Source of the DNA: Basidiobolus ranarum | Taxonomy: Eukaryota | DNA length: 35,776 nt | Assembly (NCBI GenBank): GCA_040143965.1 | Contig: JASJQH010006938.1 | Span: 1-35,776, forward strand | Reading direction: 5' to 3' | Notes under the pieces: generated by a model | What the model was told of the DNA's origin: nothing | Seen by the model: the letters and a program-made list of their open reading frames with translations, nothing else | The model's database searches: none | Shown here: positions 1,598 to 32,050 of the stretch, piece by piece | Layout: each line of letters opens with the position of its first letter | Numbering within the stretch: position 1 is the first letter of the stretch | Translations under genes and position numbers: made by a program

Positions 1598-1927
1598 TGT
1601 TAAAGTATTTGGGAGCCTGTTGGAAGTGGTTTGGAGAATTAGAGGAATTGGTGGTTTTCACTTATTGATTTATTGAGTAGTAAGTGGACATTTATAGTTT
1701 TGTCAAGATGTAAGCAAACTAACGTGTAGAATGTGTTAAGGAAGGTCCCAGGAACATGTGTACAAGGTTTGGGGCTTCTAGCACAAGTTTTGAAGAATCT
1801 ATATATCTGAGAACTTTTAAGTAAATTCCTCATGAGATTAATGGATAATATCTTAGTGAATTATAAGATAACTAAGTACTAAGCTATATATGACTATATA
1901 GGTGTTTAGGCAATGCTAATTTCAACA
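1598..1927 (-). mobile_element. LTR family copy B (no matching TSD)
   Basis: TGTTAAAG...TTTCAACA termini; homologous to copies C and D; flanks AGTGT / CTTAC do not match. Confidence 0.85.
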
Positions 1928-2370
1928 CTTACTAGCGATTTTATAGAAGTTTAAAGATCCTTTTTCATCTAGCAATTTAGTTTTCTCAACAACCGGCTGA
2001 AAAAACCTTAGGAGCTTGAGTCCAGTTTTAGGATTATGTAATATACTTAAAGGAACAGCTGTGCAATGTATAGGAATATGTTTCAACAAGCCCTGTGCAT
2101 TTATTAGTAGTGATACACTTAGAGCAATACAATTAGCACCGACGCGTTCCAGGATTAATTTAATTGGCATCTGAATACTTCCTTTATTAAATGAATATAG
2201 TATATTATAGAAATAACATGAACGTATGGGGCTAATTGTTTGCTTGTTCTATGTACTGACTCAAAGGAAATTATCACTCAGGATCTTTAAAAGTTTATTT
2301 TGATAGAGAGATAGGGCTAAAATATAAGTAATACAGAGGAATTTTAAAGATCATCAAGTTACCCACCCAT

Positions 2371-2928
2371 TCATGGATTTCTAGTAAATTCAGGGTGGGA
2401 AAGATTGTGAAGTATAGAGGAAGGATAACTACAGGTTAAACCATTCTCCGGTTCGACGAATAGTTGCTTTACTTTACCTTCCTCAAGGATCATGGCGAAC
2501 CTTTTGGAAAAGATTTGAGTGCCTTCTTTGCTTTGTTGTTCTAATCCGATGGAACTGACAAACTCTCCTTGTGGATCAGCAAGAAAGCGTACCTTACTGT
2601 TATCAACGTTAAATGACTCCTCCCAAGCCTTGGTCACGAATGGATCGTTAACTGATATAAAAGCAAGCATGTCTACTCCATGAGAGGCCAAGTCATGCAT
2701 ATGGTCAAGATAGCATGGAATTTGGGATCTTGAGTCAAGCGGATTGAACGCACCAGGTGATCCCAAGATAAGCACCTTCTTGTAGAGTTTCAATGCATCG
2801 AATGCATTGACCTGGTTAAACGGAGAGGCCTCTCTTAAGGGGGTGTTGGGTATCTTGTCACCAATTTTTATTAATGGAGCTATAGTAGCGTAGCGACGGT
2901 TGATGGAAGGTAGAATGTGACGCAACAT
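2371..2928 (-). CDS. Prx5/Ahp1-family peroxiredoxin homologue, peroxidatic Cys replaced by Asp; likely mitochondrial presequence
   Basis: IKIGDKIP, SPGAFNPLDS (canonical PGAFTPxCS), SVNDPFV..AW, RFLADP, SKRFAM, GLTCS; ATG at 2928, N-terminus MLRHILPSINRRYA; 185 aa, intronless. Confidence 0.9.
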   Translation of the reverse strand: MLRHILPSINRRYATIAPLIKIGDKIPNTPLREASPFNQVNAFDALKLYKKVLILGSPGAFNPLDSRSQIPCYLDHMHDLASHGVDMLAFISVNDPFVTKAWEESFNVDNSKVRFLADPQGEFVSSIGLEQQSKEGTQIFSKRFAMILEEGKVKQLFVEPENGLTCSYPSSILHNLSHPEFTRNP

Positions 2929-3763
2929 AATTGAGATCTTGAGTCTCTTCCAGAGGTGACGCTGGTATTTAACTTGGATGCACACACTATGGTCTTACCC
3001 GTGATCAGTGACTGTTAAATGATAATTGTTACGTATCCAATGAATCTCATCAATGGTCAATGAAAATGAACCTATGCAGTAGAGATGATTCTTTAGTATA
3101 AATAATGGTTTAACAGCGCCATAGGAACAAATAATCCCTTCTGGCACAATAGGTCAGATGAATCAAGGAGAGGGGGTCAAGGGTGTCACAGTGAGATAAT
3201 TAAATGTAGGAATGGAAATGAGAATGGAAATGGAATTATAAATAAGGAAGCATCATCTTGGTTAAATCACCACCTAATTGTGCGTTTAATTTGTTGATTA
3301 AGTTGAGCGTAGTCGGAATAAATCGCGCATAATGGATAAAATGTCACTTGACACTCTTCCAATCCCAAGTAAAATCAATGCAGGATAAGTGATAAAATGA
3401 AAGTTTGTATTTCCAATTAAACTTCTGACCTATCGCTCTTGTCCAACCTTCAAAGTCTCCTAAGCATCTTGGGCAATAATTGTGTCCCTATCTGGTGGAA
3501 ATTGTTGACAATGTACCTATATCTCTATTTTTAGCGCATCTACAGCAAAAATAACTCTCCACAAGCATCATGCAGTACACAGTAATTAGCTCAATCTCGA
3601 TTCCAGTCAACTCAAATTTATCTCATCAACAGTAATGTGGGGGTGTTCGGGAGAGAGAGTCAAAGTGAATGTGGAAAATCATTACAAGTCCAATAAACCA
3701 GTTTGAAATTAATACTGCAGGCTACCATTTTGAAGTACAAACTGAGAATGGCGAACAGTGAAA

Positions 3764-5451: not shown

Positions 5452-5546
5452 GGAATATATTGAAATGAAGATGCATTGAACTGGATTGAATGGAATGGAA
5501 TATATTGGAATGAAGATGCATTGAATTGGATTAAATGGAATGGAAT
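5452..5546. repeat. 45-bp GGAAT-rich tandem repeat, ~2.1 copies
   Basis: GGAATATATTG(A/G)AATGAAGATGCATTGAA(C/T)TGGATT(G/A)AATGGAAT starts at 5452 and 5497. Confidence 0.85.
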
Positions 5547-8105: not shown

Positions 8106-8992
8106 TTAACCAGCAGTCTGATGGATTTTCGAGTGGCGTCGTAAGTTAGACAACACCGAGAACCTCTTCCGACACCCCATTGCTTGACACGAATATGGCT
8201 TCTCGCCCGTATGAGAGAACATATGAGTTTTTAGAGAGCTGGGCCGTTTGAATTTTTTATCACATAAAGTGCACTTGTACCGCTTGTGATCATCTATATT
8301 GGCCTCCTTATAATCAGTAAAATCTACTTGCACCATTTTACTCACCATGGCCGGCTTCGATGCTCCTTGTGTGATAGCGTTTACAGAGCGCTCGCCTTGT
8401 GCTCTGATAATGCCTGGGTTCGACTCCGAGTCATAAAAATTCAAAAACTCCGAACCTTTGATTTGATGAAGAGAGATTCCATAATCTTTGATTCTTCGTG
8501 CTTCTGATTCGTCATGTAATCTCTGGCTGAGTATTGGCGGTAGAAATTAAGAAGAGAGGGTTTTGTAGTATTAGGCGGGATCAAGAGAATAATAGAAATT
8601 GATTGGGTGTTTAGCCCACCTTTCTTGCCCTATAGGATTGGTAGAATCTTCATCAGATAAATTTAAGATTGTATGGGGTTGTGTTGGTGTTTTGATCATC
8701 CTCAGTTGGGAAGACGTTGCATACGTGGCTTTGATTTGAAGCGCATGAAAATCGTCCTTGTTAGCCTAATTTTTAGTAGAATACATTTCAAGTTAGAGAA
8801 GTAAAAGGAAGAGCTCTCACGACTGCTACAGAGATAAAGAATCTCCACTAAGAATATCATCTCTCCTAAGAATACAAAATATCATACCAGGGAAGAGATT
8901 AGTTTGGAATGCTCTTTCTGTGGATTTTCAAATAGAATCGAGTCAACCGAAACATATTTGGGAAATTCATTATCGTCTAACGGAATGGACAT
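8106..8992 (-). CDS. Two-finger C2H2 transcription factor (MtfA/Nrg1-like); probable exons 8992-8888, 8765-8620, 8526-8106
   Basis: CTLCDKKFKRPSSLKTHMFSHTGEKPYSCQAMGCRKRFSVLSNLRRHSKIH; upstream exons inferred from GT-AG sites and open frames, so the 5' structure is less certain. Confidence 0.85.
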
Positions 8993-19493: not shown

Positions 19494-19603
19494 CTCCATC
19501 TATTGCTCCATCTCTTTAACGTTTAAGGCGATTGAGGCTGAGTGGATGATTAGGGTTAGGATAATCACAATTCAATCACTATACTAAAATCACTTGAAGT
19601 ACT

Positions 19604-19671
19604 CACCATACTATTGAAATCACCATACTATTGAAATCACCATACTATTGAAATCACCATACTATTTCAAT
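19604..19671. repeat. 17-bp minisatellite, 4 copies
   Basis: CACCATACTATTGAAAT x3 perfect plus CACCATACTATTTCAAT. Confidence 0.95.
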
Positions 19672-21137: not shown

Positions 21138-22971
21138 GATTAATCCGAGGAGAGATGAAACTATCTATTAAAGTGGAGATACGTCTGCTTTATATACCTG
21201 TTATTAAGTCACTTGTTAGTAGAATGAGTTATAGGTTACTTCTTGATTTTCGTATTCCTTTGACTGCTCATTACTGAATTTTGCTGGAGTGATTTAGTTA
21301 TCAACCTGTATTCAACCTGCCAACAAAGCTGTAATATTCAGGGCTAGACAAATTTCGGATAAAAATGCAGGTTCATGAAGTGGCTATCTATTGCTTCATT
21401 AGTCGTAATGAAAACGCCATGGTCGAGAAGGAACTGAAGTGACTCCTTCATTATGTGCCACCGTTGTCGTAACCTTGTACCTGTGAACTAACGCTGGCTG
21501 TTCTATCAATTAATCAAAAAAGCCTTGGGATTTATTGGTTTAAGGGCTGATATAGACATACTACCAATTCTCAATTCACCTTGGGGTAGAGGTATGTTTA
21601 AAATTACAAGTAGTGAGGTATCTACGATTGTCAATAATGTCCTCTGTGAATAATACTCTAAGAATCCGTTTTGCAATAACAGTTATTCTTGTATCTGATA
21701 AGTTACTTGTTTCACACCAACTAGTTGATCAGCGTCTAGCTTGACCATAAAAGGATTAATTAATAGCATGGGAATAGCTTATAGATATATAAATCTTGTA
21801 ATCATTTAAATAGTTTATCTATAATGATAATGGCACAATGATTGCCTAACTAAAACTATTGTAGTGGTTGACAAAAGTTTCTCAGTGTTCATTAGTGATA
21901 CACAGTCGGCTAAGAAAGGCTTATTTTCATTCAAAACGTAAATCTGAATGCCTTTACTACGTGAATGATGGTATTAAAGTTCAGCACACTCTTGGAAATG
22001 CTTACCGACTGGCTCACATGTCACTTTTGCTGCCTAGAAAGCTGGAGACAATTGCTCTAGCAATTAGATCATAACCAATGCACCAAAAGGGTAGTAGTAA
22101 TGGCGGACTTGAAACGACTATGTAGAAGATACTTGGAAATTGTAGAAACTTACTAATTGCCGCCTGGTTAGATATCGCTTTTGTGTTAGACTACTACTAG
22201 TATTGTTTAGCTCCGCCAAGATGTAAAAGTGATAGTTAGCACTAAATAAATCAATACCTGACCTATACATATACATCTTATTTCTTATTTCTCTTCCGAG
22301 TTTATATGTAGCAATTGGGAGATATACAACGAATTAAGCACGACTTGACTATCTGCATTCTTCTGCTGATAATGAAATCTAGAGCAGGGATAGCTAGTTT
22401 TTTAAGAAGATTATCACTGGGAAGATGCAAGTAGTTTAATATCATATAGTTCTCTTCCGTGTTTATCTCTATCAATGGATTATGCTACTGTTGAAGATTA
22501 TGGCATTTATCGTATGTATTATCCCTATCTGTTTACACCTGAGTATTTCATATATAAGTTATCATGTTGTGTTAGTCATCATCACTTTGTTGAAAATTCG
22601 AATAAATATTTAGTATATATGTAAATTATCCAAGAATTAGCAAAGTTGAACTAAAATTTCACAGTCGTCCAAATTAACCCGAAGATAGCCCATTTTACAA
22701 ATGTCTTGAACACAACCCCATTGATAGTCTTCTGTGTTTCCACCGAAAATTATAAACGCCTTATTTTATGTCAATTAATAAGCATCTCTCGAGTTCAAAA
22801 CTCCTTTATTTCAATGGAACATTCAATAAGTCATATTCAAGTAAATTTCTGTATACACCTCAACATTTTTCAAAATAACCCCAAGTTACCCCTAATACTC
22901 ATAGTGCCCAAGTAACATATTTCTGTTATTGCTGTTCATTATTTTCAACAAAAGTACAGGTACCCTATTTC

Positions 22972-23319
22972 TGTTGAAATTAGCTTTGCCTAAACACCTA
23001 TATAGTCACATATAGCTTAGTACTTAGTTATCTCATATTTCACTAAGATATTACCCATTATTCTCATAAGGAATTTACTTGGAATATTGACACCAACTTA
23101 AAAGTTCTCAGATATATAGATTTTTCAAACTTGTGATAGAAGCCCCAAACTTCGCACACATGTTTCTGGAACCTTTCTCAACACATTCTACACGTTATTT
23201 TGTTTACATCTTGACAAAGCTACAAATGTAAACTCTCTACTCAATAAATCAACAAGTGAGAACAACCAATTCCTCTAATTCTCCAAACCACTTCCAACAG
23301 GCTCCCAAATACTAGAACA
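22972..23319 (+). mobile_element. Solo LTR copy C with 5-bp TSD ATTTC
   Basis: ATTTC-TGTTGAAAT...TAGAACA-ATTTC; internal AATAAA; 348 bp. Confidence 0.92.
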
Positions 23320-24369
23320 ATTTCAATACAATAAAGTAACATATTTCTTTAAAGTATCCTGATCCAATTCATTTTATAACAACTACCACAAATGTGCTGG
23401 GAATAAAATAACACTTTGTTAGCTCAATTATAAATATATAGATGGATTCATTCTGTTCCTTCCTTAGTCAGATATTAATCTCGATATCTTTTCGAAGTTT
23501 TTTCCGAAATCACATATACCTTACTACTGTCATCAAATCAAATAAACTGATAGCTCTTGGCCCGTATTGTCTGTATATTTATTCAATATAATAATCTGTA
23601 TTATGTATATGAGCTTATCATATGACAGTAAGCTGTTAACAGCAACAAGAGCACTAATAATAAATTTTAATTCCTGGTAACTATAGCAGTAATATTTTTT
23701 CTTGGCATAGTTCCAATATCTCTAATCAAGATCAAACTTTGTACTCCCAAGATATCATCTATAGAATTATCACATGCCACTAAATGTCCAGATTCTAAGC
23801 CGTTCAGTAGTTTTCCAAGGTATTGGATCATCATATTGAATCCTTTGGAGATATTAGAAATCCATATACGCCATACCTATTACCTATTTGACCTTTTCTC
23901 TGAGTCAGCATCTAGACTTTAACGTTAATTGCATTGATTATATTCAGCTTTGAAGGAAAACTAAGCCTGCACCACGCCAATTTCCTTAATAAGGTGTTCG
24001 CACAGATGTATAATAGTGACCACCGAAGTTGCATTTGATATCCCAGCTTGTTTGGTGAAATCCGATTTGATTTCAATTTGGGCCCAGTAATTTTCATTTT
24101 ATTACTAGTTCAACTCACTCTTTGGGGTATTCTTTTGAATGTGCAGTTTTCCATGTGTTGGCACTAACTGCTTCACCTCACTATATGACGATCTGTGATA
24201 CAATATGAAGCAATTTCCTAAAATGCCATTTTAAGTTAATCGATCTAGAATGGCGTAGTGTCCAGATATAGGTGCTAGAGTAAGCAAGCTATAAGAGGTT
24301 AATGTAGATTGAATCCAATTTATTATGGTTGTATTAGGTGTCTGGATATTGGAGTTAAAATTGATGATT

Positions 24370-26160
24370 CTACCGTGGTTGGTCCATCTGTACCACAGTC
24401 GCCTTATACTGACTAGTAAGAATCTCGGTACTCTTTTCACTGTCTTTTTCTAGTTGTAAACGGATATCGTCGGGGAATCGTACACGAATAATATAATAAA
24501 ATAAGATGTATAAAGTAATTCCACTACGAGCAATAATGGTAAATGGAATCTCAAACAGAATTGGATAACATACAATCAAATCTGGACGCCATGCTAAACC
24601 GAGTCGACCACAGCTGCGGGATTGCCATACATTGTAGAAGATAATGCCTGCCCAACAAACAATGATTGCGTCGGCATAGAATACCATCAACTTGGTAAAG
24701 TCCTCCAATGATCGGATCTTGGCAAAAGACATGATAATTCCAATTAGCTGTGCTATTTCACGGCCCAAACTGATCAGTTTCCACATGGAATACGTTCGAG
24801 CAAACCACTTGGGCCCATAAGTCAATCCCCCAGGTGCAAATAATACTCTTATCCACCTCATCATAAACATACAACCAGCAGGGTCCCATGAGCGCATGCG
24901 TTGATTTAAGAATGAGTGCTCCTCACATTTACATTTGGCAGGGTTGAGCTTTCTTCTTAAGGGATCAGGTAGTAGATCATACCAATGCATAGGGCAGTAA
25001 GGAACCACAGTAGCAACAATACAATCTCGGACGTAACCTATCCTGCTGGGACAGGAAACACCCAATTTGGCATCATATCGTCCTGATAATTTATGAACCA
25101 GGTAGCCCATCTCCAAGTCCTCCCCATTGAATATTGTGCAATGCCGACTCAGTACTTCTTTGAGTTGATCTAATCTCCAGGTAGATATAGCTCCAGATGC
25201 AAACAATTGGGTGCCAAAGTAAGATGCAAAGTATCTGCCGACATCTCCACTAAGGTATTCAATTTGCTGAATAGTAGCCATCAGGGTTGCGCTATGATTT
25301 TCCGCCGAAAGGGGATAAGCCAAAAGGATTTTGGTAGGATCTTCAAACTGTTTCTCTATTGATTTTGAAGGCCAGTATGTTGGCAGGATCACATCATCAT
25401 CTAGGATGGTGATAATATCACTCTCGGACTGGCCAGCATGGTACCGAGAGTGAAGATCATATATTGCATGGTATTGTGCTAGTGTCTTGTTACCATATCG
25501 AATATGTGAGACCATAATTTGACTTAAGGGCTCCAGTCCCCGGGAAGTATAATATTCGTTTGACATTTGTAGGCAGAGGGAATCTGTCGCTTCTATTTCC
25601 TCCACCGAAGACCCATTGTCCGATATAAATACTTGATGCGGTGCAACATGCTTAAGTAAAGCTAGAACGGTTTCTCGAAGTTTATCGGAGCTGTTGTGTG
25701 CAACGATGAGAAATAAATGGCGTTGCGAGGCAGGCTCGGTTTCAGGATCTGGGAAAGGCTTCCATCGAGCAAAGATACCAAATAATGAACTAAGCAATAC
25801 ACTGAAGCATAAATACATGTATACATTGGCATATACAAATACATCGGCTTTGAAGTTTTGATAGTAGCGCCAGTAGTTACAAGCCCACCATACGAATTGG
25901 AAAAACGCCTTAGGATCTGAATTGTGAAAGCCACCATCAGAAGCGTACTTGCCGAGTAAAGCACCAGGGATAGCAAGTCCTACCAGTAGTGACAATAATA
26001 TAGTGGAGAAATACGACTTGTGTGCATATCCTTCGGTGAAAACCCGTATTTTGCATAGATATCCCAAAGGATAAAGAATACCAGCATATAGGCCACCTAG
26101 TGTTAAAACTAGTAACGCAAAAGCTGCTAAATAAGCGTGAGAACTCTCTACCCAATCCAT
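24370..26160 (-). CDS. Membrane-bound processive glycosyltransferase family 2 (synthase-like), intronless, 596 aa
   Basis: N- and C-terminal TM segments; SDNGSS, GNKT, LDDDV (DxD), ASGAISTW, GEDLEMG, QRMRSW; ATG 26160 lies about 45 nt after TATAAAAG. Confidence 0.88.
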   Translation of the reverse strand: MDWVESSHAYLAAFALLVLTLGGLYAGILYPLGYLCKIRVFTEGYAHKSYFSTILLSLLVGLAIPGALLGKYASDGGFHNSDPKAFFQFVWWACNYWRYYQNFKADVFVYANVYMYLCFSVLLSSLFGIFARWKPFPDPETEPASQRHLFLIVAHNSSDKLRETVLALLKHVAPHQVFISDNGSSVEEIEATDSLCLQMSNEYYTSRGLEPLSQIMVSHIRYGNKTLAQYHAIYDLHSRYHAGQSESDIITILDDDVILPTYWPSKSIEKQFEDPTKILLAYPLSAENHSATLMATIQQIEYLSGDVGRYFASYFGTQLFASGAISTWRLDQLKEVLSRHCTIFNGEDLEMGYLVHKLSGRYDAKLGVSCPSRIGYVRDCIVATVVPYCPMHWYDLLPDPLRRKLNPAKCKCEEHSFLNQRMRSWDPAGCMFMMRWIRVLFAPGGLTYGPKWFARTYSMWKLISLGREIAQLIGIIMSFAKIRSLEDFTKLMVFYADAIIVCWAGIIFYNVWQSRSCGRLGLAWRPDLIVCYPILFEIPFTIIARSGITLYILFYYIIRVRFPDDIRLQLEKDSEKSTEILTSQYKATVVQMDQPR

Positions 26161-28102
26161 GGTTATAGAAGTGTAGTATAAAAGTAGGCAAGTTAAGCAT
26201 CTTTTATACACCGCAATCTACCATGGAATCTCTGGTACTTATCTTTGACAACGCTTTATTCTGAGTTCGGAGCTTCAAGATAACCACTTTTAAGCAAACG
26301 CCGTTAAGTCATTTAGCCTATTTACTGATATAGAATTGCCAGATATATTACCGATTGAAATTATTGCTTTGAGATTCAAATCTACCTTCTCCGCCAACCT
26401 CCGGCAAGATGAGCCGATGATATCTATTGGTGCAGGTATACTTCTATATCATCTTGCCCTGTGACGCCCAAAAAATTGTCCGCACTAGAGTATAGAGTGG
26501 GCGTGTGATGGTATTCAGTTGGGAAATTGACGTTGGCGCATAGTTGAACAATTTTAGACTTATTCAGGGCTAGCATGAGGAAAGTTGTAAGTTGTGCCAA
26601 CTCATTTTATACTAGCATTAGAGAAGTCTTCAAAGCTGATATTCTAGGCTTCACCTCTTACTGAGGCCAATCGTATATGGGCTTTAGTTGTATGAGTTGA
26701 TATTTAGATGATGTCTGATATACAGAGACTATATACGCCAGATACTCCATAGGCATATTATTGTTGCAACAACCGGGTATCGAAATATTTATGTACTATA
26801 GTTGAGATCCTTTTTCCATCGTATTTGTTCTTATTAGTTCTCATATTATTGTCCAGCTTTTCATGAGAGTTCAATATGCTGTAAACATAATAAGGGTCCA
26901 TCGTTACCCTTCTTTTTCTTCGTTGTAAATAGATTTATTACTCGGCTTCCGATAATTCATTGACTGGTATAAATTCATATTTTATTTACCTTTTTAAATC
27001 TGCTCAGTTCATTGTAAAAAACGAATACTTTATAATAAGATCTTGTACAAGTAGTTATAGCATTGAAGCAGCCATGAATACCGTGTTTATCTTTTCAAAT
27101 CTACCAATTTTGTCCATTACTGTAATACTTGACAGGCCTCTGATTCAATATTCTAGGTAAAACTATACCGTGTTAATAATTACGTACTAGAAACGTAGAT
27201 ACGTATAGCGATGGAACTGATTATACGTTACTCTCAAACAATTGTCAAGCATTCGCGAAGATATTAAAGAGTAGTATATGAACAGATTTCCCAGGTTAGA
27301 GTTGTTATTGATGCTTTAAAACATGTATTCAATGATATTTTATAAGAAACCAATAACACTAACAATTATTAATCTTAGCTGAATGAGCCCAGAACTCTGT
27401 TTTATACTTGACATTGAAAGATCTATTCTTATCGAAGTCATTATCATCATAATCTATAGCTCTTGACGATACTAATTTTTAGTGTTAATTTCATCATCCT
27501 CTCTCTGTTTAAGAAGTAGCACTAAACAATGAGGTATGAAGTTACTGATCTAAGGCGGTTCAATTCTTTCCAACTCTTACCCGGCTATATACTCGCAAGG
27601 AATAAACTAAATCTTTTCTGATACCTATTATGCTTTAAGCATGAACTCTCAATTAATTTGAAACATCTACTTGAGACACTATGCAGTCTTAGAATTTAAC
27701 TTTACTCCTACTAAGCAATTATATTAAGCCAAATTAGACTAAAACAAGAATAGTGGGTAGGTATTTTCTAGTTCAACACTGAATGTCCGGTTCTATCATT
27801 ACAAGTGTATTTCCTAATCAAAAACCTGGTAATCTATTCACAAATTTCTTTACACCTCTACCCTTAATACAGTTATTGTTAACGCAATAGTATAGTAAAA
27901 TTTCATATAATCTACTTCCAATTCCATATAAAATGCATTTTCCAAAGATTCTAGTCTATTAATTATCTTTGTTAGCGATAGAGTTTCTTGTACTCTGGCC
28001 CTTAGATAACCATAATAACTACAGCATTTGAATCTCTTCAAGAATAAAGAGAAATGAAGCGGGTGGAGTAGGTATAGTATTTCAGGTTCTGATTTTCAAG
28101 TT

Positions 28103-28174
28103 GGCCTGCATAGTGTATTGGATTATGCGTTGATCTCACGGTCAAAGGTTGATGGTTCGAATCCATCTGGGTCT
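28103..28174 (+). pseudogene. Degenerate tRNA / tRNA-like Pol III leader
   Basis: A box TAGTGTATTGG 28111-28121; B box GGTTCGAATCC 28154-28164 in perfect T stem GATGG/CCATC; D stem GTGT/ATGC; anticodon stem TTGAT/GTCAA with only a 6-nt loop; broken acceptor stem. Confidence 0.75.
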
Positions 28175-28201
28175 CTAACTTAATTAGGTAAATCCTTAAT
28201 C

Positions 28202-28337
28202 ATAGATAACGGTGATGAAAAATTCTCATTGTCGGTTGGATATCAGAGGACGCCCTTAGATCTCTAAGGGTGAACCCACCTCTGTTCCAATCACGTATGA
28301 CATAAAATTCGCCCTCAAGCGCGTCTGAGTTATCTAT
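28202..28337 (+). ncRNA. Candidate box C/D small nucleolar RNA (136 nt), family not recognised
   Basis: Perfect 9-bp terminal stem ATAGATAAC/GTTATCTAT; box C GTGATGA 28212-28218; box D CTGA 28325-28328; canonical 3-nt K-turn bulge; long internal hairpin 28236-28290. Confidence 0.72.
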
Positions 28338-28340
28338 TTT
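28337..28340 (+). terminator. Possible Pol III T4 terminator
   Basis: TTTT at the end of the terminal stem, with further T4 runs within 20 nt; no T4 run between 28103 and 28336. Confidence 0.45.
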
Positions 28341-29319
28341 GAATTTTCCTCATCATTTTGCAATGGCTCTGTTGCTAGCTGTATTGTGATAGTGTTTTTG
28401 CTCAAGATTATTAAATATAATCAAATTGGTAAACAATTTTACGGGAAACAAGCTGTTCTTCAATTTATTTTTAATGATGTTACTGATTCATTATGTTCAA
28501 CGTCAATATGACGCAGAGTTAATTATTAGAATTTGTCCGCTTGTTGTTGCCAAAATACAGGTTTTAAAGCCAAGATAGATGTAATTCATGCAAATCCTTA
28601 TGCAGTTACGGATCTTCAAATCAAATAAATATCTTCCATTATGAGCTCTTTGTGTTAATATTACTATCGATAAAGCTTAAGCTCATTCTATTGGACAGCA
28701 TTTAGTAAACGAGAGTTTTAAATGTGTTTGTAAGTGTTCATGGAAGTCAGAATCCATCAAAGGGTAAACAAAAATTGTTCTGAAAACAAATGGCACCCAA
28801 ATGTAGTACGCATATCACACCATTGAGGCTAAATCAGAACATTAAAAATCAGGTTAGTTTGCAGATTGTGAGAAAACTTTAGGAGTGATCGACCTGGTGT
28901 ATCCACGAGTTGAATGAAAATGAAAAAAGGAAACAAGATATGTCTGCCAAGGTTTTATAATAACTCTTGGTATAAACCTACTTCAGCTTTCTTGGCGCTT
29001 TTTAGAACAATTGTGATTTTCACCATAATTTTCATACTGTCATTTCAAAGAAAACTCACTCGATAACTCAGAAATTTTGTGAATATATTATGCTATTTAC
29101 TTTTCTTCATGCTTTAAATTTCCAGATATGTTTATTCCTTTATAATCCAGGACTATTTAGGTAGGGATCGACTGGTATTCAAGTTGAAAGTTCAACGTAA
29201 TGACTGGGGCTGTACAGTGCTTTTCCAGACTCGATGCCAACTTTAGAGTCCATCGAAACGATAAAAGCTGGCTCATGAAATTGAGTTTATCATAACTTAC
29301 ATCTAAACAGTAATCTACC

Positions 29320-29736
29320 ATGGAAGCAAAGAGATCTCTTTACAGAGTAGCCTTATTAATTGTGTGTCTTTTGAGCCCAATTGTGGTGAACGCTGGAAGT
29401 TGTAAAGATTGCCTATTTTCCTTACCTTTCCGAGCCACGCCAGGATGCCAGGATTTCGTATATGACCAAGAACTCAAGCCTTTTAACCCTACCGATTTGT
29501 ACAAGAAATGCTCTTGCCAGCTAAAAGATGCCCCTCAACATTTTGATCTATGCAATCAAAATTGCTCTCAATCGGAGGTGAGCAATATAAAATCCCAAAT
29601 TAACGCCGCAGGAATATTTGATTGCAATAAGGTTCTAGGAAAATCAGCCGCACCTCCAAGCCTGTTGTCATCCAATACTGCCTGGATGATGGGAGCTGTC
29701 CTGAGTTTACTTCTAAGTCACTTCCTATTGATATAA
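29320..29736 (+). CDS. Secreted, probably GPI-anchored 8-Cys protein (CFEM-like spacing), 138 aa
   Basis: Signal peptide to ...IVVNA; 8 mature Cys; omega-like SAA and hydrophobic C-terminal tail AWMMGAVLSLLLSHFLLI; CTACCATGG start context. Confidence 0.85.
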   Translation: MEAKRSLYRVALLIVCLLSPIVVNAGSCKDCLFSLPFRATPGCQDFVYDQELKPFNPTDLYKKCSCQLKDAPQHFDLCNQNCSQSEVSNIKSQINAAGIFDCNKVLGKSAAPPSLLSSNTAWMMGAVLSLLLSHFLLI

Positions 29737-30406
29737 TCTAGCCTCTAAAATTATGGTTAACTTTTCTCTACTGCTATACAGCTAGTTACGCATACAATAA
29801 ATTTCAACTTTAAATAAATCTATCAACAGAAAGTGATGAAATCAGTATTTATCAGTTTGATACCTTGTTCCTAGGTAATATTCATTAGTGGGGCTCAGTC
29901 AGCACTTAACCTACCCAATGAGTATTCAAAGTATGATTGCCAAAATCTGCTTAGTACGATCAAATATTTTGGTTGAAAGTCTCACTGTTGGAATTCACCC
30001 TTTTACATTTGACATACACAATATGAGTGATATGGTTTAAGTGTTTAATTTCGTAGGCTATGTAATTAAGAAGAAATATCAGGAGTGTTAAATGGCCTAC
30101 CTTTTCGTTCTTGTTGTTAAGGTACCTAATATCCGACATCTGGTGTTTGCCAGTTGACCAGTAGACCTTTTTTACATTCTACGTGTTTCCCCATAATAAA
30201 TATGTCATTTTATAAGTTCACTTGTTGCTCACTATTCTAAAGGCTTCCAGTTTAGTTAGATCTGTTGGTGCTTTCTCCTCTTTAGAGAAAACTTCCTACA
30301 TTTCTCTGTCCTATATATTTGAATTCTCAGAAATCTTAATTTGCATCATCAAGCTTGTCAATGATCTAATATACAACGGTTATTATAGAGATTTCGGACA
30401 TGTTTC

Positions 30407-30718
30407 TGTTGAAATTAACATAGCCTAAGCACCTATATAGACATATATAGCTTAGTACTTAGTTATTCCATATTGAACTAAGATATCACCTCAAGAGTAA
30501 TTTACTTGGAAGTTCTCAGATATATATATCTTTTAAAGAAGCTCCAAACTTTGCACACATGTACCTGGGACCTTCCTTAACACACTCTACACGTTTGTTT
30601 ATTTACCTTTCGACAAAACTATAAATGTCAACTTTCTACTCAATAAATTAGTAAGTGAAAAACATCAATTCTTCCAGTTCTCCATACCACTTCCAACAAA
30701 CTCCTAAACACTTCAACA
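30407..30718 (+). mobile_element. Solo LTR copy D with 5-bp TSD GTTTC
   Basis: GTTTC-TGTTGAAAT...CTTCAACA-GTTTC; 7-bp terminal inverted repeat TGTTGAA/TTCAACA; CTATAAAT then AATAAA; 312 bp with internal deletions. Confidence 0.92.
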
Positions 30719-32050
30719 GTTTCCAGAGTTGCAAGATGAGGTTGATAGCCTATTGAGAGAGCTTGATGCTTGTGAAAGGTGTTTAAAGAAATGGCCTTAC
30801 TGTAAGTTTGAGAGATGATTGTTAATTGATTAGATATCAATTATACATAAATTTGAAAAGATTATAGAAACCAGCAATGGAATTACGTTCGGGACATCCG
30901 TAAGAGTAAAATAAGCCATCCTTGGGCTAATTAAAATATATCCCAAGTATATATTTCAATGTTGAACTAACTGCTTTTTGACTGAAGAATGCTAGCTAAT
31001 TTAGAGAAGATATACGAAAAAGTGATGTGGCCAAACTCTGAGTGTATAAAGATTAGGATAAATAATATAAGGGAAATAAGAACTTCAACTATCTTTAAGT
31101 TTATTTTATTCTCTCTCAGAGATCAGTTAGTTACCCTAAAGGAAACGTTTTATTGTATTATGGTTACTTCCACTTCAAATCCTGAACTACTATAACAGTA
31201 CTAATCTCAAAAGCATCATTCACTCTTGAATTCTAGTATATTTGAAGCAATTTATCCATCAAATGAAATATAACATTTAGTTTGATTTGGGGTGATAGTT
31301 CGATTAAGAGCACCCTAAATATATATGTATATGCATAATATAAGATTGTATTATATTCCATTTCGGTTAATTCGGTCAGATGGCATCGTTCTACACCATA
31401 TAAAGATAGGACATTAATTATTTACCAACATGAACTTGAGATAACACTTGCTGGAAACAAATAAGAAATGCTCTTTCGGTGATTATCAGTGATAACAGCA
31501 GTCCTTAGTTAGCACGAAACTGTTGCCACACTCTTCCATGTTTCTGTCAAAAAAATGGAATGAGCATTTGCTATTCTTGCAATCACGTATGATTTCCTCC
31601 GAGATTCAAAGTGCCAAGGTTTTTTGTACACTGATTTCTTTCACCTGATGGTTCAAGGGAATTTTCAGATACATGAGCTACTCTTACTAGCGTATCAATT
31701 CCAATCGTCAGATCGGTGTTTATATCAGTCTGTCACCTTAGATGGGATTCTTTCAAACGCCAAGAAGTTGGTAGTTAGTCTTGGTCGCATCTACGATCAT
31801 CAGTATATTTCTTGGCACAATCACCTTGGTAATTATTAGGATATATATAGGAATTTATTTAGTAAAATCTGAAAATAATTACTACAACGGACCATTAAGC
31901 ACTAGCCAAATAGGTAACAGTGGTAGGACAAGATCCATATTAGTAACAATAGAATGAGAAAGATGTATAATGGATGAGGCAGATCTACATAAAACCAGGC
32001 AACTGAGATCTTGCTTCTCACAGGTTTCCTTCGTAAGTCGTTTATCGTCC

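Follow-up and report, generated by a model that had tools for sequence, protein, structure and literature searches.

Introduction

Transcription units in which a tRNA-type promoter lies upstream of a co-transcribed small nucleolar RNA (snoRNA) are already known from plants, from SNR52 of budding yeast, from the UM2 loci of nematodes and from Drosophila, and the dicistronic tRNA-snoRNA genes of plants were reportedly described by Kruszka et al. in 2003. Here we describe a candidate locus of this general kind in a 35,776-nt stretch of DNA from Basidiobolus ranarum (assembly GCA_040143965.1, contig JASJQH010006938.1), the whole of which was analysed and is referred to below as the window. The locus consists of a pseudo-tRNA with internal RNA polymerase III (Pol III)-type promoter boxes at positions 28103-28175 and a box C/D RNA at positions 28202-28337, and its sequence features make it somewhat probable, in our judgment, that the two form a single active Pol III gene of a Basidiobolus-like fungus, the pseudo-tRNA serving as leader to a box C/D snoRNA.

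The closest described systems differ in how much of the tRNA is present in the leader. Plant examples such as the Arabidopsis tRNA-Gly(GCC)-snoR43 and rice tRNA-eMet-snoRNA genes are cited in sections of PMC2566860 and PMC2780460, and the latter, a study of Neurospora snoRNAs, terms the organization exclusive to plants in the part of its text that treats it. In yeast SNR52 and RPR1 the A and B boxes lie within a 5′ leader that is removed (PMC5356446, in the portion concerned with these genes), and the leaders of SNR52, RPR1 and ZOD1 are said in an excerpt of PMC2566860 not to be arrangeable into a tRNA-like structure. At the C. elegans UM2 snoRNA loci, a box A/B motif was found in a short-lived primary transcript with T-run termination by 5′ and 3′ rapid amplification of cDNA ends, and its authors read the motif as the remnant of a tRNA-snoRNA dicistron (PMC2527325, in the available extract). 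Finally, the tRNA-5S and tRNA-RUF70 dicistrons of Yarrowia have a leader tRNA gene that drives a promoterless downstream RNA (PMC2566860, same excerpt).

The Basidiobolus locus resembles the plant genes in that a tRNA-shaped element with internal boxes lies directly before a same-strand C/D RNA and a single T-run terminator comes after it, and RNase Z would be expected to free the snoRNA; it differs from them in that the plant leaders are working tRNAs in multi-copy arrangements, whereas the element here is a non-decoding pseudo-tRNA with a 6-nt anticodon loop. As read from its sequence, it has promoter boxes of the Pol III type upstream of a putative C/D snoRNA, an arrangement that would correspond to that of SNR52 of S. 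cerevisiae, but unlike the leaders of SNR52, RPR1 and ZOD1 the Basidiobolus leader is predicted still to fold as a cloverleaf. In view of the lack of a matching Rfam snoRNA family, no guide is shared with snR52, and because the Neurospora snR52 homologue is intronic (PMC2780460, same part), a common origin of the unit with SNR52 is unlikely. The UM2 loci, and the Pol III snoRNAs of Drosophila, likewise have tRNA-like A and B boxes ahead of snoRNAs and T-run ends, but UM2 has a box A/B-like motif for which the extract of PMC2527325 mentions no cloverleaf, whereas a near-complete pseudo-tRNA is present here, in a different kingdom. The Yarrowia dicistrons are also fungal Pol III fusions of a tRNA-type leader with a non-tRNA RNA, but their leader tRNAs are functional and the downstream RNA is 5S rRNA or RUF70 rather than a C/D snoRNA.

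An earlier note on this DNA, made from the sequence alone, had overstated the novelty of the arrangement, as A- and B-box leaders that are co-transcribed with a snoRNA and then removed from it are known for yeast SNR52 (PMC5356446, as above). The unit is better regarded as a plausible addition to a known architecture, distinct in its lineage, in a leader that would fold as a cloverleaf, and in a snoRNA outside the curated families. Literature searches, mostly by title, brought up no account of a unit like this one from fungi beyond the Saccharomycotina, and a search on Basidiobolus snoRNAs returned nothing relevant; the main text of a fungal snoRNA survey has no mention of Basidiobolus or Entomophthoromycotina, and its supplements may list more species (PMC5824354).

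Organization of the Putative Unit

The features of the unit, all on the forward (+) strand, are as follows, with runs of four T residues referred to as T4 runs.

28073-28080, + strand: TATA-like TATAGTAT, about 18-25 nt before the presumed start (by inspection)
28093-28099, + strand: TTTT then CAA, the 5′ bound of the unit (T-run list)
28103-28174/5, + strand: pseudo-tRNA leader (Rfam tRNA model, relaxed ARAGORN search and inspection)
28111-28121, + strand: A-box-like TAGTGTATTGG, falling on positions 8-19 of the tRNA model (by inspection)
28135-28140, + strand: 6-nt anticodon loop CUCACG (ARAGORN drawing)
28151-28167, + strand: perfect T arm, GATGG/TTCGAAT/CCATC (by inspection)
28154-28164, + strand: B box GGTTCGAATCC, an exact match to the consensus, 32 nt past the A box
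28175-28201, + strand: spacer of 27 nt without a T4 run (inspection and T-run list)
28202-28337, + strand: box C/D RNA of 136 nt (boxes, terminal stem and fold)
28202-28210 and 28329-28337, + strand: perfect 9-bp terminal stem, AUAGAUAAC with GUUAUCUAU (by inspection)
28212-28218, + strand: box C, GUGAUGA (inspection and scan)
28226-28299, + strand: long, irregular central hairpin, RNA nt 25-98 (minimum free energy and centroid structures concur)
28300-28324, + strand: mostly single-stranded stretch before box D, presumably serving as antisense (guide) element (predicted fold)
28325-28328, + strand: box D, CUGA (inspection and scan)
28337-28347, + strand: TTTTGAATTTT, with two T4 runs, the presumed Pol III terminator, beginning at the stem's final base (T-run list)

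The Box C/D RNA

The downstream part of the unit has the boxes and the stem of a box C/D snoRNA, with RUGAUGA near its 5′ end, CUGA near its 3′ end, and a stem that would close a kink-turn (K-turn). There are several lines of evidence that this is not a fortuitous arrangement of short motifs. First, the stem is followed by exactly three nucleotides (G, G and U) before the GA of box C begins, and box D directly adjoins the 3′ half of the stem, so the canonical K-turn register is correct. Second, when both strands were scanned for RUGAUGA followed at 40-250 nt by CUGA and enclosed by 5 bp or more of uninterrupted stem, this segment was the one candidate in the window; 300 shuffles that preserved the dinucleotide content of the whole window yielded no stem longer than 7 bp, a length seen in two of them. 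Third, the RNA has a predicted folding energy of -46.8 kcal/mol against -27.9 ± 3.6 kcal/mol for shuffled sequences (z = -5.24), a value that none of 200 shuffles equals. There is no convincing C′/D′ pair, the CUGA-like tetramers being limited to CAGA, CUUA, CUAA and GUGA, and as folded the RNA looks like a single-guide snoRNA bearing a big internal hairpin. In box C/D guides the methylated nucleotide pairs with the fifth nucleotide upstream of box D, and the nucleotide to be methylated would here be predicted to pair with C28320.

No Rfam family matches anywhere in the window at the gathering score. When matches with E values up to 10 were considered in searches of 551 nt and 145 nt around the locus, the highest scores for snoRNA families were 20.4 bits for snoZ157 (gathering score 55), 14.3 bits for snoR28 (45) and 13.2 bits for snoU61 (55). 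The first of these, the plant family RF00333 (snoZ157/R69/R10), is similar in its long terminal stem and in the GGUGAUGA and GUCUGAG contexts of its boxes, and the boxes and stem do align; but the guide regions mismatch, 80 nt stand for 46 model positions, and membership was rejected. A minus-strand match resembling snR64 (13.9 bits, E = 7.1) is at chance level and was also set aside.

The Pseudo-tRNA

The upstream part of the unit is recognizable as a tRNA derivative. It scores 24.6 bits with the Rfam tRNA model, below the cut-off of 29 (E = 0.0085 in a local search of 551 nt), with model positions 6-65 aligned. ARAGORN at its default settings reports no tRNA anywhere in the window, and with the threshold relaxed to 95% or 90% it reports this one element, at 28103-28175, as tRNA-?(SeC|Val); three matches appear at 85% and 14 at 80%. 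The internal promoter elements are intact: the A-box-like sequence is near the A-box consensus, and GGTTCGAATCC is the single exact match to the B-box consensus in the window, in which 0.30 matches would be expected even with up to one mismatch. Together with the T run downstream and the absence of one internally, an A and a B box at tRNA-like spacing are the sequence features of a type 2 Pol III promoter.

The element does not have the features of a functional tRNA, in that its anticodon loop is not of 7 nt and it falls below the standard thresholds of both tRNA searches. The ARAGORN drawing is nonetheless an entire cloverleaf, with six acceptor pairs (three of them G-U), one C-C mismatch and an anticodon stem of 5 bp, and its minimum free energy fold is a four-way junction of -22.2 kcal/mol. 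The 6-nt anticodon loop and the whole cloverleaf together indicate a pseudo-tRNA that is unable to decode but is not shattered. From the letters of the loop it possibly descends from a tRNA-Val(CAC).

A second site with some tRNA character lies at 8414-8430 (+ strand), where a B-box-like GGTTCGACTCC with one mismatch is contained within a T-arm-like CTGGG/CCGAG and is preceded by a CTTGTG stretch, which we take to resemble the anticodon loop of tRNA-His. This is possibly a tRNA relic that has decayed much further. It was rejected as a second unit: the B-box-like site at 8417 has no Rfam tRNA match at E values up to 10, and the adjacent TGATGA...CTGA has no terminal stem.

Linkage of the Two Parts

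The pseudo-tRNA and the C/D RNA are on the same strand and separated by 27 nt, as a check of positions confirms; by simple arithmetic over about 71,500 strand positions, the chance that one random element falls within 100 nt upstream of another is about 0.001. The T4 runs are placed in register with the unit. One, at 28093-28096, precedes the pseudo-tRNA by seven bases; the next are at 28337-28340 and at 28344-28347, with dense runs thereafter, and TTTT is absent from 28097 to 28336. This gap is the second longest in the region 26200-29300, where the median distance between T4 runs is 60 nt, and the way in which T runs delimit the unit exactly tells more than the length of the gap. As the run at 28093-28096 bounds the unit on its 5′ side, the start of transcription must come later, probably at the CA within 28097-28099. 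The expected position of the upstream TATA element of Pol III genes agrees with 28073-28080, and both the TATA-like TATAGTAT and the CAA at 28097-28099 fit a Pol III start past the upstream T run, a fit that counts for little in AT-rich DNA.

The anatomy of the unit and its statistical significance are thus established, and much of what the earlier note had claimed of them holds. The 136-nt RNA with its perfect 9-bp stem and its boxes in K-turn register, the 27-nt spacer, and the TTTT following the stem as the first since the leader are all present, and the proposal that the RNA belongs to no recognized family agrees with the Rfam results. The tRNA shape of a 72-mer with A box, B box and perfect T arm was also borne out, but the description of its acceptor and anticodon arms as broken was somewhat too strong, the clear defect being the 6-nt loop in an otherwise whole ARAGORN cloverleaf.

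A Proposed Mode of Expression

Transcription by Pol III, processing and snoRNP function are proposed by analogy, and we infer the steps from the known behavior of the plant tRNA-snoRNA genes, yeast SNR52 and RPR1, and the C. elegans UM2 loci. A former tRNA gene, possibly for tRNA-Val(CAC), would have lost its decoding function through an anticodon loop of 6 nt and a weaker acceptor stem, with the cloverleaf shape and the A and B boxes retained. TFIIIC would bind the A and B boxes and TFIIIB would be positioned on the AT-rich or TATA-like DNA upstream, such that Pol III starts directly past the TTTT at 28093-28096 and produces a transcript of about 245 nt that contains pseudo-tRNA, spacer (27 nt) and C/D RNA (136 nt) and ends at TTTTGAATTTT. 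The tRNA-shaped leader would then be removed at the cloverleaf by RNase Z, RNase P or both; exonucleases would trim the spacer in the 5′ to 3′ direction as far as a snoRNP built on the C/D K-turn with Snu13, Nop56/58 and fibrillarin; and the U tail would be cut back to the 9-bp stem. The mature product would be a box C/D snoRNP with a sole free antisense stretch, located upstream of box D.

All of the sequence features needed for a Pol III leader-snoRNA unit, as the earlier note had put forward, are present and statistically non-trivial, and its interpretation is in part supported; the further suggestion that a tRNA was domesticated and then maintained by selection is drawn from one sequence and is to be read as provisional. 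We advance only tentatively, as a possibility that we would not yet back, the broader proposal that the Basidiobolus lineage independently made a tRNA gene into an expression cassette, keeping the boxes and a cloverleaf that RNase P or RNase Z could cut, to drive an orphan, rod-shaped C/D RNA outside Rfam. The genome may contain a family of units like this one.

Alternative Interpretations

Several results weigh against expression of the locus as a Pol III leader-snoRNA gene. First, the fold of the pseudo-tRNA by itself is not significant (z = -1.76, equalled in 9 of 200 shuffles). Second, 24.6% of 241-nt windows contain no TTTT, so a gap of about 240 nt is not rare, and T4 is possibly a weak terminator in fungi. 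Third, the guide region yields no convincing target: the best anchored duplex of the guide upstream of box D with a complete but heterologous rRNA set is of 9 bp, and a metagenome scan with a 19-mer spanning the guide and box D returned five matches, all of them in bacterial-looking contigs of 65-66% G+C. Fourth, a 31-nt stretch at 28181-28210, comprising part of the spacer and the 5′ half of the stem, is 87% identical to a segment at 1236-1265 on the minus strand, which hints at dispersal of some portion of the unit. The third and fourth of these bear on particular alternatives and are considered with them below.

The rRNA used for the target search was heterologous, consisting of fungal-type eukaryotic rDNA that contaminates bacterial and archaeal assemblies, not that of this organism. 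It was retrieved with patterns for the fungal large subunit (LSU) primers NL1 and LR11, with an exact match to NL1 required. One complete rDNA unit was obtained, on an 8,971-bp contig in which Rfam confirms a full small subunit (SSU) rRNA, a full 5.8S rRNA, and LSU model positions 1-2271 plus 1883-3401; this locus supplied the complete rRNA set, and the other 44 rDNA loci are partial. Exact complementary runs between the C/D RNA and the rDNA are of 9-11 nt, each present in between one and five of the 45 loci among the matches listed, and allowing G-U pairs gained weak duplexes alone. Shuffled guides equal or beat the real one, with 186 of 200 reaching at least 9 bp and 129 of 200 at least 10 bp against the complete set, and no duplex above chance was found in these rRNAs. 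A 9-nt match at the boundary of LSU domains D1 and D2 was rejected as a target, being at chance level, in a variable stretch and in one of the 45 loci among the matches listed; that it is longer in Basidiobolus is speculation. The metagenome matches are attributed to chance because none has snoRNA features by eye. By these tests against heterologous rRNA the C/D RNA is an orphan.

Separately, the retrieval revealed that at least 45 bacterial or archaeal species-representative assemblies carry contaminant contigs with eukaryotic, fungal-type rDNA matching NL1; no NL1 match was seen in viral contigs.

The lack of a target raises the alternative that a C/D-like RNA does exist but does not guide methylation, and is instead a structured snoRNP or K-turn RNA that acts as a chaperone or processing factor, or that has a target other than rRNA. 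The absence of an Rfam family and of a canonical duplex in the heterologous rRNA are both consistent with this, as is the anatomy of the RNA, in which no C′/D′ pair is recognizable and more than half of the length is taken up by the long hairpin. However, the rRNAs searched are those of other organisms, complete for one of 45 loci, and guides that are specific to a lineage and directed to variable regions of rRNA are common (PMC5824354, in its text on lineage-specific families). We regard a non-guide role as somewhat unlikely, and it concerns function only, being compatible with the expression of the unit from a Pol III leader that we favor.

A second alternative is that the locus is a tRNA-derived short interspersed element (SINE), or a dead copy, made by retroposition, of a Pol III transcript containing pseudo-tRNA and snoRNA, such that the whole element of about 245 nt is, or formerly was, mobile and is without function here. 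Tail aside, the layout is that of tRNA-derived SINEs, which have a tRNA-related head, an unrelated body and Pol III boxes, and its length of about 240 nt is suitable; there are other dispersed repeats in the window. Multiple copies are also a property of the Yarrowia and plant dicistrons (PMC2566860, in the excerpt cited above). The partial copy at 1236-1265 scores higher than any of 300 shuffles and any of 192 real control segments. The flanks common to both sites are CATCTGG upstream and TTATCTAT downstream, and there is no B box, box C or box D at the second site, which could be what decay has left of another unit or else a fragment of a shared repeat; other matches to the 15-nt core of the copy have three mismatches each and are at chance level. 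Against mobility, no second full copy was found in the 35.8 kb, no A-rich or simple-repeat tail was seen, and the 6-nt repeat ATTTTC that flanks the element is equalled or beaten at 16% of 954 control positions and so provides no evidence of a target-site duplication. Furthermore, every functional C/D motif is perfect, including the 9-bp stem, which would not be expected of a decaying copy, and a master gene of the same architecture would have to exist anyway. The earlier note had named a SINE as its alternative, to be recognized by dispersed copies with target-site duplications; within the window the partial 31-nt copy was found, and neither a full second copy nor a significant duplication. 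We consider a SINE or dead retroposed copy unlikely.

The two parts might also be unrelated neighbors, a decaying tRNA pseudogene lying beside an independent box C/D snoRNA gene that RNA polymerase II (Pol II) transcribes or that is processed from an intron. Fungal snoRNAs are mostly Pol II products or intronic. For the Neurospora homologue of snR52 an intronic location is given (PMC2780460, same part). Moreover, T4 runs are frequent enough in this AT-rich DNA, with the local median spacing noted above, that the terminator-like run could be incidental, and some 1 kb downstream, in the same orientation, lies the start of an open reading frame (ORF) whose product has a signal-peptide-like N-terminus (29314-29736). 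However, the pseudo-tRNA is the sole tRNA-like element of the window and yet lies 27 nt from the C/D RNA on the same strand, both ends of the T4-free interval coincide exactly with the unit, and the promoter boxes are the best-preserved portions of the pseudo-tRNA. Nor are coding exons detectable nearby. The locus is intergenic, with a longest stop-to-stop ORF of 81 aa in the region 26200-29300, and no convincing coding frame was seen there by inspection, the ORFs in that region not having been compared with Pfam; this absence argues against an intronic snoRNA, while leaving room for an untranslated host transcript. Independent neighbors thus seem to us improbable. That the whole is a chance resemblance from which no stable RNA is made, as might be asked of any single sequence, is very improbable indeed, given that the only near-threshold tRNA and the only C/D candidate of the window occur jointly, the 9-bp stem is matched in none of 300 shuffles, and the fold has a z score of -5.24.

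Implications of the Proposed Pol III Leader-snoRNA Gene

If the unit is transcribed as we propose, then a deep branch of the fungi, beyond budding yeasts, plants and animals, would have acquired or kept the expression of snoRNAs by Pol III from a captured tRNA promoter. The process would have been caught at a point where the tRNA is dead as a decoder yet still tRNA-shaped, which bears on the origin of leaders of the SNR52 and RPR1 type; on the broader proposal above, the unit would be a living intermediate between the plant dicistrons with their functional tRNAs and the yeast SNR52 and nematode UM2 leaders in which boxes alone are present. It would also provide a new orphan C/D RNA family for a lineage absent from the main text of the fungal survey (PMC5824354). 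There is also a practical aspect, as elements of this type, compact native Pol III cassettes whose tRNA-like leader is self-cleaving, are used for guide RNA expression in fungi lacking characterized Pol III promoters.

Neighboring Genes and Repeats

The window has coding content of a fungal type, including a class II fructose-bisphosphate aldolase and an RTA1-like protein among others, and a G+C content of 33-42%. The aldolase is 94% identical to a protein of Basidiobolus meristosporus and 83% identical to one of B. ranarum, with Mucoromycota proteins the next most similar, which places the source in Basidiobolus or a near relative. The nearest neighbor upstream of the unit is an uninterrupted 596-aa ORF on the minus strand (24370-26160), both ends of whose product look hydrophobic; it has no Pfam match at E values up to 0.001. 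On the downstream side, the ORF at 29314-29736 (+ strand) encodes 140 aa and is cysteine-rich, with a hydrophobic C-terminus in addition to its signal-peptide-like N-terminus.

Of the several dispersed repeats within the window, one of about 200-350 bp is present in four copies (1-230, 1597-1927, 22968-23324 and 30403-30723) in both direct and inverted orientation with 73-94% identity. It could be a solo long terminal repeat or a non-autonomous element, and its four copies mark this region of the genome as repeat-rich. There are also two tandem repeats, a 17-nt unit, TCACCATACTATTGAAA, present about four times at 19603-19670, and a 45-nt unit present twice at 5452-5541.

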